DNA of 64,000 nt from Eledone cirrhosa (taxonomy: Eukaryota). The translations under genes and the position numbers were made by a program. Below, one piece after another: positions 24,930 through 38,274 of the stretch. Each line of letters starts with the position of its first letter. Position 1 is the first letter of the stretch. A model generated the notes under the pieces. The model saw only the letters and a list, made by a program, of their open reading frames with translations, searched no databases and was not told the DNA's origin. The stretch is from NCBI GenBank assembly GCA_964016885.1, contig OZ024740.1, forward strand, positions 292,454,001-292,518,000, written 5' to 3'.

Positions 24930-25067
24930 GTGGATTGGCAGTATAGAGTTGCTATTCTGAGTTCAAATCCCGCCAAGGTTAACTTTGCCTTTCATCCTTA
25001 CGGGGTCGATAAAATACGAGTAATACATTGGGTAATTGCTGGCCTTGTGCCAAAAGTAGAAACAATT
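24930..25067 (+). mobile_element. tRNA-type SINE, internally deleted
   Basis: B-box plus core plus gctggccttgtgccaaaagtagaaac tail. Confidence 0.8.
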
Positions 25068-25228
25068 ATTTATACACATATAAACATGTTTCCAGCGAAC
25101 GCTCGTGAAGCTTTATTAGTAGAGGGGTGTTTTAACCGATGGTAGGGGTTAATATTGAATACGTATACGATATTGGAAATATATACACTGAACGGTGTAT
25201 ATAACGATATAAAGTCCCGTGCACGTCA

Positions 25229-26079
25229 TCTACTTATATATATAACCAGCAATTTCTCTGTCTGTCTGTCCGACAGTGGAAACACGTGCGTAGAGAGAGA
25301 GTGAGAGTGAAAGAAAGAGACAGACTACGAGAGAGGGATAGCGGGAGGGAGAGAGAGTGAATAGACGCTAAAACACGTGCTACAGAAACATTACCTTCCC
25401 CTCTCCACTGACTTTGGTCACTAAGGCCGAGGGAATCGCGCTGAGCGCGTCATAATGACGTAATGCAGACAGCCAGACATACAGACAGATATTATAAGGG
25501 CGCAACGTTATATCTATGTATCTATCTAAAAAGAAAGACTAAGAATTATATAGAGAGAACGCTAAATCGCCTAATGCGCTCCCTAGGGCATTGAAAATTT
25601 GAAATAATTTTTTCTCAAAACACTCACAGGACCATAAGTATTACATGTCTAAAGTTTGAAAACAATCGGTTGGATGGTTCTCAAGTTTTAGTGAGCTGAC
25701 AGACAGACAGACATTCTCTGTTTTAGATATATAGACTAGCAGAATCCCCCCCCCCGGGTGGTTTTCTGCTAGTCTATATTATAAAACAGAGAATGTCTGT
25801 TTTTTTCTGTCTGTCTGTCTGTCTGTCTGTACAATCACTAAAACTCGAGAACCGCCCAACCGATTGTTTTCAAAAGTTACACATGTAATACTTATGGTCC
25901 TATTGAGTGTTCTGAGCAAAAAAAAATTCAAATTTTCAATGCCCTAGGCGATTTAGCGATCTCTTTCTCTCTCTCTTAGTCTTTCTCTTTTTAGATAGAT
26001 ACATAGATATGACGTCGCGCCTTTATAATATCTATCTGTATGCCTAGCTGTCTGCATTACGTCATTATGACGCGATCAG
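25229..26079. mobile_element. Cluster of non-autonomous Helitron 5' halves; inverted pair 25441-25735 (-) / 25773-26079 (+)
   Basis: TCTATA..AAAACAGAGAATGTC(TGTC)n...AACCGATT 5' ends shared with the 37477-38274 element. Confidence 0.8.
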
Positions 26080-26085
26080 TGTGTG

Positions 26086-26123
<38 letters not shown>

Positions 26124-26302
26124 AACATTTTATTTAAAATTGTTGGGTTACAACGAGTAAATATTTTATAACTGATATAAAAGCACTCAACAGATTTTGG
26201 AGTATTTTACGATATTAAACAAACTATAACAACTTTTTAAATGGAAGTTGTAAAATTTCTCAAGGTATGTCAAATTTATTTATAAAACTGTTTATATATT
26301 CT

Positions 26303-26366
26303 ATTTTGTCTGAAGAGGGCATACCATATTTTTAATATGATATCCCTGAAATATATATAATGAAAT
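26303..26366 (+). ncRNA. Decayed minimal type-I hammerhead ribozyme-like motif
   Basis: CTGAAGA (26310), stem GGGCATA.CATAT/ATATG.TATCCCT, GAAA (26348), TATATATA. Flanks ATTTTGT / ATGAAAT can pair with wobbles. Confidence 0.5.
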
Positions 26367-26428
26367 AAATATGGTTTTATAAATGTAGTTTCCATTTGTT
26401 TAATATCGTATATATATATATATATATA

Positions 26429-27914
26429 CTAGCAGAGGTACCCGGCGTTGCTCGGGTATTAAATAGCAGTTGTGTATACCATTTATGTCAATACTTCAGT
26501 GCTACTTCGAAAACTATACTTTTATAAAAAGAGGGTTCCTGCCCCCAGGGGTCCCCTACTCAATATGTGCCAATTCTGAGAGTTCACATTCATCTGCAGG
26601 ACAAACGTAGCCCATGTGTCAAGTTTTGTGAAAATCGGTTGCGAACTCTAGAAGTTATGACGTTTTGTTGCATTGCACTGCAGTTCTTCAGTCGACTCCA
26701 AGGAAGTGGTTAAAGGGGGTTATCTGCTGGGAGACCCTATAATCACTATCTGGAAAAATGAAAGTGCCCATGACATCCGGAGTACATAAGTAACTTATGT
26801 CTTAAGTTTGGTGAAAATACTGTAGAAATGCATAAGGTTTATACACGCGTGCGCTCGTGTGTTTGTGTGTGTGTGAGTTTGTGTGAGTGTGTGGGGTATG
26901 TATTTGTGTGTGCATATGTATGTGTATGTCCGTCGGGGCACACGTATGTACTGGCCTAAATCTTCACTATTTACTTTTACTATTTTAATAAGCTGTCATT
27001 TTCGTTTTCAATTTTATTTACATCATTCTTAAACTCCGGGGCTGGAAATAATTCGGTTATGTTAAATAGAATATTAGTCTAACGACTCTATTTATACCAT
27101 AAAATTGGTCTTGACTTTGCATGAAATTGTTCTTCACGCTCCACATAACGACGTATTATCCTCGCTTTTTTCCCGTTCATTGCCAGGGAACGTCTTCACG
27201 AACCAAAATATCGTCTCCCTGTTTTCGTTCGGTTGCAACGTTTCTCGAAATATTTACTTCTGCATTCACAGATTACTCTCAGTTCAATTTGAATGGGAAA
27301 TTCCTGTTTCATCGATTTTCTCCGTAACCATGGAAGCTTGTACCATAAAAGTCGACCCAACGCCTCCTCAGGTAATTCTGCATAACTGTGTAAATTTTCC
27401 GACTACACTTACTTACTTAAATATACAACGTCTGACCACTTCCAATTTATATAGTAGATATATTCTTATGCCAGGGAACGTCTTCACGAACAAAAGTATC
27501 GTCTTCCTGTTTTCCTTCGGCTGCAACGTTTTTCGAAATATTTACATCTGCGTTCACAGGCTGGCGATTACATAATCACATACATCACTGACAGATATTT
27601 TTGCATACACAAAAACAAAATATAAACAAACAAGGCCAACGATTACACCAGTTAGTCTTAGTGTACTTCATACTGCTTTTAGGTAGAAGATCCCGTTAAG
27701 GGTGAAAGCAGCGATTCTTTGCTTAAACTTTAATATTTTATTTTAATATATATATATATATATAATTATATATTCGTGTACAGATATTTTTACATACACA
27801 ATAACAAAATATAAACAAACGTATTTATTTCACGAGATTCGATAAGGATAAATATATATCAAATATATAAGAACCCTAGAGCAAATCCCGAGCAACGCCG
27901 GGCCATTCTACTAG
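26429..27914. mobile_element. Helitron-derived composite bounded by two outward-facing 3' termini
   Basis: CTAGcagaggtacccggcgttgctcggg at the left end and cccgagcaacgccgggccattctaCTAGt at the right end. Internal duplications at ~27180/27470 and ~27590/27780. Confidence 0.75.
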
Positions 27915-28002: not shown

Positions 28003-28615
28003 CAGGGCAGTGGATTGGCTGAAGCATAAGAACATCGGATCAAATGCTTTTAGGCATTTAGTTACGATCCTTTACATTCTGAGTTCAAATCCTACCGAGG
28101 TTAACTTTGCCTTTCTTCCAGTAACAGACTGGAGTCGTTTTAACCAACTTCCCCCTCCCTCGAAATTGTTGGCCTTATGTCTAAATCAGAAACCATTATT
28201 GGCAGTATCGGTAGAGGGTCGGACGCCATGCTGTACAGCAAAGAGTTACGGCCCTTTATGGTCTGAGTTCAAATCCCGCCGAGGTTAACTTTGCCTTTCA
28301 TCCTTACGGGGTCGATAAAATAAAGTACCAGTAATGCACTGAGATAATTGCTGGCCTTGTGCCAAAAGGTAGAGACAATTATTAAGGGCGGTAGATTGGC
28401 TGTATCAGAAGAGCGTCAGACACATGCTTTGCAGCATATAGTTACGGCCCTTTACATTGAGTTCAAATCCAACCAAGGTTAGCTTTGCCTTTCATCCTTA
28501 TGGGTTCGATAAAATTAAATACTAATAATGCACTGGGGTCAATCAACTTTCCCCCTACCTTGAAATTGTTGGCCTTGTGCCTATTAAGGTAGTGGATGGC
28601 AGAATCAGTAAAGTG
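28003..28615 (+). mobile_element. Head-to-tail array of three tRNA-type SINEs plus a partial fourth head
   Basis: B-box and core repeated at ~28081, ~28265 and ~28459. Confidence 0.85.
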
Positions 28616-37476: not shown

Positions 37477-38274
37477 TATATTTATAAAACAGAGAATGTC
37501 TGTCTGTCTCCCTAAAACTCGAGAACCACCTAACCGATTTTTTCAAACTTTACACATGTAATACTTATGGTGGTGTGAGTGTTTTGAGCAAAAAATATTT
37601 CATATTTTCAATGCCCTAGGGACCGCATTAGGCGAAAAACCGCATATTTTAGGCTTTAAAGGCTTTTTTTTAGGCATAACGGAACAATAATCCAGGCGAT
37701 TTCTTCAAAATTTGCATTATTTATGTCGTTTAAAGTGTTTTGAACAAAAAAGATTTTCTCCTTTTTTGCCCCAGGGCCGCATTAAACGAAAAACCGATTT
37801 TTTAAAGCATTTTGGTTGCGTTAGGGCCTGTAACTCGAGAAATACCCAACCGATTTAAAAAAAAAACTTTGCATATGCATTACTTACGTTTCACAAATTT
37901 TCTTGACTGAAAAAGATTTCAAATTTTTGACCGGGGACCGTATTGTTTAGCATTTTGGTTGCGTTAGGGCATGTAACCTTAAAAGTATCCAACTAAATTC
38001 CTTCATGCTCTCCACCACTGCAGTCCCACATGCTTACTGCTCAGTAACTATTGCTTTCATTGTACCATAGCACAACAAATACATGTTCGGTTTGTTGAAT
38101 GCCTTTTTACTTAACCCTATCGCCTTGGCTTTCGTGGGTTGAACATTTTACTCTCAGGCACCCAATTAAGTTAAACCCCTGGTAATCTACAACGAATTTT
38201 TTTAATAAGCACAAAATGTAGACACCATCCCCAGGCCGAGAATCCCGAGCAACGCCGGGCCATTCTGCTACTAG
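37477..38274 (+). mobile_element. Non-autonomous Helitron (its 5' TC displaced to 33483 by the Tx1 insertion)
   Basis: ATAAAACAGAGAATGTCTGTCTGTC...AACCGATT 5' region and 3' hairpin cccgagcaacgccggg followed by CTAG|T. Confidence 0.85.

Follow-up and report, generated by a model that had tools for sequence, protein, structure and literature searches.

A young Helitron joined to an older one in a palindrome of Eledone cirrhosa, and a lineage found before Helitron 5' ends

How did two Helitron starts come to stand back to back, facing outward, in a single palindrome? The palindrome in question, of about 640 bp, lies at positions 25441-26079 of the stretch of DNA analysed here (the window, 64,000 nucleotides of contig OZ024740.1 in the Eledone cirrhosa assembly GCA_964016885.1), and an earlier note made from the letters of the window had proposed that it was produced by a fold-back or template switch at the 3' hairpin during rolling-circle replication. 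Our comparison of its copies leads to a different answer. The palindrome consists of two elements, a young Helitron (element A) joined to an older and separate Helitron, and not of one fold-back. Element A was likely inserted in place, its lineage (here called AC) using the A|TC starts of other Helitrons as a target. This answer is drawn from the boundaries of the repeated unit, the separate ancestry and age of the two arms, the near-exclusive position of the lineage before Helitron 5' ends, and the comparison of filled with empty copies of one target.

Two elements within one palindrome

As the earlier note had described, the arms at 25441-25735 (minus strand) and 25773-26079 (plus strand) are diverged inverted copies of each other (270 matches, 29 mismatches and 45 gap columns, end gaps included), and the palindrome folds at -262 kcal/mol with a z of -38.7, a result equalled by none of 20 shuffles. 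Also present are the TC starts at 25735 on the minus and 25773 on the plus strand, the 37-nt spacer between them (25736-25772) with its run of ten C residues, and a CTAG|TC junction on each strand. A genome-wide search for the hairpin pattern returned 1698 exact sites in the source assembly and 0 in a reversed control. The locus belongs to a dispersed family, with 40/40 scored candidates in the 3.0-Gb assembly matching the palindrome centre on both strands. An assembly artefact or a one-off event was ruled out by this copy number and by private changes within copies.

The boundaries of the repeated unit do not coincide with those of the palindrome. On the left, copies begin sharply at A|TC 25228/25229, which is 212 bp outside the left arm, and the flanks are unrelated in 29 other copies; on the right, the unit ends with the CTAG at 25769-25772 and copies diverge immediately after it. 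The unit so delimited is element A, found in 40 distinct copies of 481-571 bp, with a head that is 95-99% identical in the 39 other listed matches. This AC head (1648 exact copies in the source assembly) and the hairpin end are common to a lineage composed of C1 (about 0.9-1.0 kb, with the same head and hairpin end as A and a different body), C2 (1.2-1.6 kb), A1, A2, G and H. The right arm lies beyond the unit and is the first 307 bp of an older resident Helitron, B'. The palindrome had also been regarded as a possible route from Helitrons to foldback elements, a suggestion at odds with the start of the unit outside the left arm and with the variability of the right arm, which belongs to another element. 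The arms are not the termini of a mobile unit, the palindrome not moving as a whole, and their outer ends, rather than carrying a target-site duplication, continue into the A head and the B body. A palindromic miniature inverted-repeat transposable element or foldback unit was ruled out by these boundaries.

Judged by the sequence of its ends and insertion sites, A can be classed as a non-autonomous Helitron of the HLE1 group. It starts with TC at 25229, has CTAG as its 3' CTRR end, and carries a hairpin about 11 nt before that end, in that the inner GC palindrome stops 11 nt short, while the stem goes on to take in the terminal CTAG. Copies likewise sit between A and T with no duplication, the head being preceded by A in 35/40 copies and by another CTAG-type end in 5/40; for sister family C, filled and empty F sites show the same. 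The family form of the hairpin has a 17-bp stem and a 3-nt loop; the window copy differs from it by the expansion to ten C residues.

The ancestry of the arms was examined in a FastTree phylogeny of 40 left arms, 23 right arms, 41 solo heads and 13 C-capped heads, from which 17 of the 40 right arms were left out for having less than 260 nt of likeness. The 40 left arms fall together in a single clade (FastTree support 0.79, mean pairwise distance 2.1%), which is sister to the B1* copies, a variant of the B1-type Helitron, that are embedded in Helitron F. Right arms are scattered among solo copies in the tree and differ from one another by 15.0% on average, comparable to solo copies (13.7%); their nearest-neighbour distances range from 2.7 to 13.9%, and the window right arm is closest to the solo copy L119, at 6.7%. 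The median distance from the consensus is 1.0% for left arms, 5.4% for solo B1 and 5.3% for solo B2. Because the left arms are tight and the right arms are diverged and solo-like, the arrangement is that of a young element in front of an old one. Within the window copy, the left arm departs from the left-arm consensus at 2/296 bases and from its own right arm at 30/283; its 2 private changes are both absent from the right arm. The two arms belong to different subfamilies and differ in age, and arms of different subfamilies were what the earlier note had set against its own fold-back proposal.

Likeness between the arms is not general in the family. In 6 of the 40 A copies the following head does not resemble the left arm, and in a further 11 the resemblance is only partial. 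Whenever A lands on a B-type head a long palindrome would result, and this would account for hundreds of 600-bp palindromes without a fold-back at each site.

Position of the AC lineage before Helitron starts

Elements of the AC lineage stand almost exclusively before the first base of another Helitron. Among the first 100 of 711 C-type ends, with heads identified by eye, 98 are followed by TC and the remaining 2 adjoin B2 heads with a changed second base, about 1 in 100 being not clearly a head; the targets comprise 11 AC heads, with B1, B2 and at least eight further types making up the others. When AC heads were picked by the head alone (n = 30), an end was found within 1.5 kb in 23, was the hairpin in 22 of these 23, and stood before a head in 22/22. 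The 40 distinct copies of A are followed by TC in 39 cases and by TA in 1, a count that is biased in that about half of them were located through the centre. All 21 copies located through the head precede a Helitron start, and 4 of these starts belong to families unlike the left arm. G and H loci were chosen with a TCT target and are not counted as evidence of targeting. Junctions are exact, both heads are intact and no chimaeras were seen, and one A2 copy caps the start of an autonomous element (L253). For random AT insertion, our own rough estimate is 1 in 100,000 per site.

Control ends behave differently. Ordinary Helitron ends precede a head in 9-10 of 100 listed cases, and ends of family D, an older family whose last 62 nt are related and whose hairpin is the same, though its head differs, do so in 1/100 listed cases and in 0/21 (the low exact count of D is due to a fifth T in its outer hairpin arm). 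Family D thereby rules out the hairpin alone as the cause of targeting. All targeted families carry the AC head as well as the hairpin, while D has the hairpin only and is untargeted, and therefore the head, or the enzyme reading it, likely sets the rule. Nor is the 13-nt start motif of the targets sufficient: by eye, 23 of 100 genomic matches to it are not heads, whereas 45/45 C targets with that start are. Ordinary targets have a 3' context that is family-specific, a TA run and then AAA for B-type ends and TAAT 5-9 nt in for D, and such contexts loosely resemble each family's own 5' end.

Filled and empty versions of one target can be compared inside Helitron F. Here B1* lies backwards, and its upstream flank is fixed because of this embedding. 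The B1* head is empty in 73 copies of F, and in 9 copies an AC head lies exactly at its A|T, with B1* or F body resuming directly after CTAG in 7 of the 9. The inserts are single C1, C2-like, C1|C2 and composite elements with few shared variants. This filling rate (9/82) is of the same order as the capping of B2 heads (582/2737), where 582 capped heads stand against 2155 found directly after A; B1 and B2 heads are also found on their own, preceded by A in most of the cases listed. At the level of the family, short-read contigs join the hairpin end to a TCTCC-type head (depth 604 in run X3), and contigs of runs X3 and X4, from one sample that is possibly the assembled individual, have the hairpin joined to an AC head.

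The first 18 nt of family K are the same as those of B2. K departs from its consensus by about 0.7% over the first 150 nt and inserts at ordinary sites; young Helitrons in this genome do not, then, all target heads. As a target, K yielded 2115 uncapped matches and only 2 capped ones, each of which is a point mutant of B2. These data fit a requirement that targets existed before the AC burst. Family selectivity through one base at position 20 was considered and rejected, the cause being probably age instead, with K so close to its consensus and located inside AC elements. Seven copies of K also lie about 1 kb apart with repeated flanks (L375-L381, G000:C1:5.85-5.86 Mb).

Several points weigh against targeted insertion in place. 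The listings of C-type, ordinary and D ends are first matches on the first contigs and not random draws, and a trailing filter in the D count drops about a quarter of the sites. Escape of K by age and escape by sequence are not separable in these data. Two of the 9 filled F loci have no hairpin end within 5 kb. Six of 8 sequencing runs, a set without long reads in which X1 and X2 hold only small shares, were swamped by paralogues and gave no allele with B' but without A and no piece spanning the window copy. Fifteen of 78 private left-arm changes are also present in the copy's own right arm, against 10% with other right arms, so that some arm-to-arm copying blurs the picture. The search for a twin of the window right arm, which gave none above 93%, scored only 40 of 5492 candidates. 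Finally, the AC head or hairpin end was seen on no autonomous element in 40 RepHel loci (of 3704 candidates), and 20 longer C loci likewise contained no autonomous element.

Mechanism, alternatives and the origin of the left arm

For the mechanism of insertion in place, we lean slightly towards a left-end nick by the RepHel transposase followed by reciprocal strand transfer of an AC circle. The transposase would nick the resident A|TC as if starting the resident's own transposition, and the nicked circle would join by reciprocal transfer, the flanking A to the TC of element A and the CTAG of element A to the resident TC. The resident A|TC and the G|TC of the circle would be cut alike and then exchanged, leaving no duplication. 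More tentatively, and with somewhat less than an even chance in our estimation, the AC lineage may be a natural site-specific Helitron, whose left end and hairpin end confine nicking and joining by the transposase to Helitron left ends, and thus a hyperparasite of its own class.

The same outcome could also reflect a function lost rather than a specificity gained, which we regard as possible if rather unlikely. AC elements would then be end-defective passengers that circularise, cannot capture ordinary targets, and enter chromosomes only where the reaction that closes the circle runs in reverse at a resident start freshly nicked by a transposase. The burial of the 3' CTAG in a 17-bp stem is consistent with such a defect, as are the lack of a cognate autonomous element among the 40 RepHel loci and 20 long C loci and the range of targeted families, which includes the start of an autonomous element. 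Family D, however, has a similar stem and yet uses ordinary sites, and the head embedded backwards in F is hit at a normal rate, from which it follows that the target need not be the working start of a mobile unit. Separately, near-identical RepHel matches recur every 100-150 kb in several regions (G000:C20:3.5-5.2 Mb, C27:13-15.5 Mb, C19:35-40 Mb and C16:0.5-0.8 Mb), which suggests large segmental tandem units, and several 3' ends of this repeated RepHel family are followed by a TC start.

An improbable alternative, though one that may hold for single copies, is that A or C was joined extrachromosomally to a second Helitron, or read through its hairpin, and that the pair then inserted as a co-mobilised dimer at an ordinary AT site. 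Read-through of the 3' end is described for Helraiser (PMC4778049), and chains of two to three AC elements and composites do exist, as the AC heads among the C targets attest. A new flank would be expected for such a pair, but the F-specific flank is retained in 9 insertions. The partners are moreover older than A and, among those scored, without a close twin, and K, which is equally young or younger, is never a partner.

Formation of each palindrome in situ by template switching at its hairpin, as the earlier note had it, is far less probable still and is refuted as a general route. The shared private changes given above would suit it, but right arms are as distant from their own left arm (13.4%) as from the left arms of other copies (13.7%), left arms are monophyletic, and A stands before many heads of limited or no likeness. 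Fold-back stands, however, for the founder event and for rare copies. In L141 (G000:C1:23672620-23675670, centre near 1500), arms of about 190 nt differ by 1 mismatch and are followed by a return to half of the hairpin; this copy is a fresh, clean template-switch product, and fold-back at this hairpin does occur. Short tracts of 30-50 nt beside the hairpin match the other arm in L152 and L170. Similarly remote are homologous recombination by the host and base pairing through the inverted arm of A as ways of bringing the element to similar heads: that arm is complementary to B1 heads, and heads have TC, an AT run and a TCTG repeat in common, but B1-type heads are hit by A in 6/21 cases and by C, which has no such arm, in 7/30, and exact junctions with intact heads and no chimaeras speak against recombination.

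With targeted insertion as the preferred reading for the window copy, whose arms differ in subfamily and age, the fold-back proposed in the earlier note likely applies to the founder of the family instead. A2 is composed of the C head, F-body sequence, an inverted B1* and the hairpin in C orientation; the A1 element of the window has a longer C1 head joined to the same inverted B1* arm; and C|B1* junctions inside F exist (L230-L232). A single ancestral fold-back in a C|B1* junction probably gave A its left arm. The arm would have arisen once at the symmetric hairpin in such a junction inside F, and the fold-back strand would have returned to the template at a segment common to F and the C head. 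The hairpin loop of family H counts against this origin to some extent: it is reversed in 9/13 copies and forward in 4/13, so that inversion with a loop flip could also apply and loop orientation is weaker proof of fold-back. The loop of family D (L208-L227 and further listed copies) is mostly GAA, with TTC-type loops in roughly a tenth of the listed copies; it is hypermutable, and its two states recall the flip and flop of parvoviral termini. Two members of the lineage carry captured cargo, C1 (L076) a repeated fragment of a Gln/Pro-rich reading frame of 85-155 codons on the minus strand of its body, and C2 a fragment of a short interspersed element (SINE).

Further features were noted in the window. 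A solo B-type Helitron with a decayed start and an ordinary 3' end occupies 37477-38274, and SINE copies, apparently of an octopod type, lie at 24949-25070 and 28004-28600, stacked at a spacing of about 184 bp from 28004. A 91-bp direct repeat (91%) joins 27181-27271 to 27469-27559, the nested Helitron carrying a piece of B-type body.

Table 1 Features of the composite Helitron locus (positions in the window)
Feature	Position	Strand	Evidence
Element A, 544-bp non-autonomous Helitron, AC lineage	25229..25772	+	5' TC after A (25228), 3' CTAG; sharp left boundary in copies
AC head, 211 bp, common to sister family C1	25229..25439	+	Sequence comparison of copies
Left arm, 295 bp, 5' end of a B1-type Helitron (variant B1*) in inverted orientation, constant internal segment of A	25441..25735	-	Clade of 40 left arms
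37-nt terminal hairpin, CTAG at both feet	25736..25772	.	Either strand can be read as a Helitron 3' end
Resident older Helitron B' (subfamily of solo copy L119)	25773..27914	+	TC start 25773; ordinary hairpin and CTAG end 27887-27914
Second Helitron nested in B'	26429..27458	-	Ordinary 3' end 26429-26456; 88% match to L304 over 26410-27463

Related systems and implications

The ends of element A agree with those of experimentally studied Helitrons. The Helitron transposase is described as making single-strand cuts at A|TC and behind CTAG, the determinants lying within the terminal 40 nt; transposition cannot do without the left end, the hairpin acts as terminator, and circles arise that carry CTAG|TC junctions (PMC4778049, PMC5876387). 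Like Helraiser and HelibatN, A has a 5' TC, a 3' CTAG and a palindrome ending 11 nt before the 3' end, and inserts between A and T without duplication (PMC4778049, PMC5876387, PMC11417382). Helraiser, as these accounts report it, made 1,751 new insertions at AT in AT-rich DNA at large, whereas about 99% of AC-lineage sites are at another Helitron's first base; the hairpin of A is also extended over the terminal CTAG and hence symmetric, unlike that of Helraiser. Wheat Helitrons are described as having a plain AT preference (PMC13286980).

Head-to-tail junctions and tandem Helitron arrays have been taken as signs of rolling-circle concatemers, and the exact CTAG|TC junctions seen here resemble them (PMC5876387). 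Unlike in concatemers, the joined units are mostly not the same element of the same age: 89/100 listed C ends precede non-AC sequence, 11/100 precede an AC head, and the partners are older. Because these junctions join different families of different age, they indicate targeted insertion rather than concatemers. Self-inserted and composite FoHeli elements with multiple 5' termini likewise place Helitrons in or beside Helitrons and form chimaeric units by read-through to a captured end; the passages describing them concern scattered cases in HLE2-like elements, one of them 2 bp from the 5' end, and give no family-wide, base-exact rule (PMC5148889). The Helitrons of Paramecium that target telomere repeats share a strict, orientation-fixed target within one lineage, but their target is the telomeric repeat and their transposases form a separate clade (PMC13085455). 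A literature search, whose coverage did not extend to subscription journals and Repbase/Dfam notes, listed no paper in which the 5' ends of heterologous Helitrons are targeted to the exact base. Elements that target other elements include Tx1L in Tx1D and IS4321/IS5075 in the inverted repeats of Tn21, a hyperparasitic safe-harbour targeting, and maize Helitrons reportedly cluster near their own family; these cases involve other enzyme classes, or a regional rather than a base-exact preference. Nested, composite and tandem Helitrons (PMC5148889, PMC5876387) and a telomere-targeting clade (PMC13085455) are thus already known.

For the choice of target by the Helitron transposase, assays report only AT in AT-rich DNA. 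This one genome provides matched natural variants, namely a base-exact lineage, an older untargeted family whose hairpin is the same and an ordinary family of equally young age, and the target rule would make Helitron target choice directly testable. It also gives a hint that integration at a short landing pad could be site-specific and free of duplications, and it cautions against taking every CTAG|TC junction for a rolling-circle concatemer. If the AC lineage is indeed a natural site-specific Helitron, general Helitron target capture would be a loosened form of left-end recognition, many junctions read as concatemers would be targeted insertions, and the symmetric terminator would breed new families (A, G and H) through fold-back and through capture from the opposite strand.
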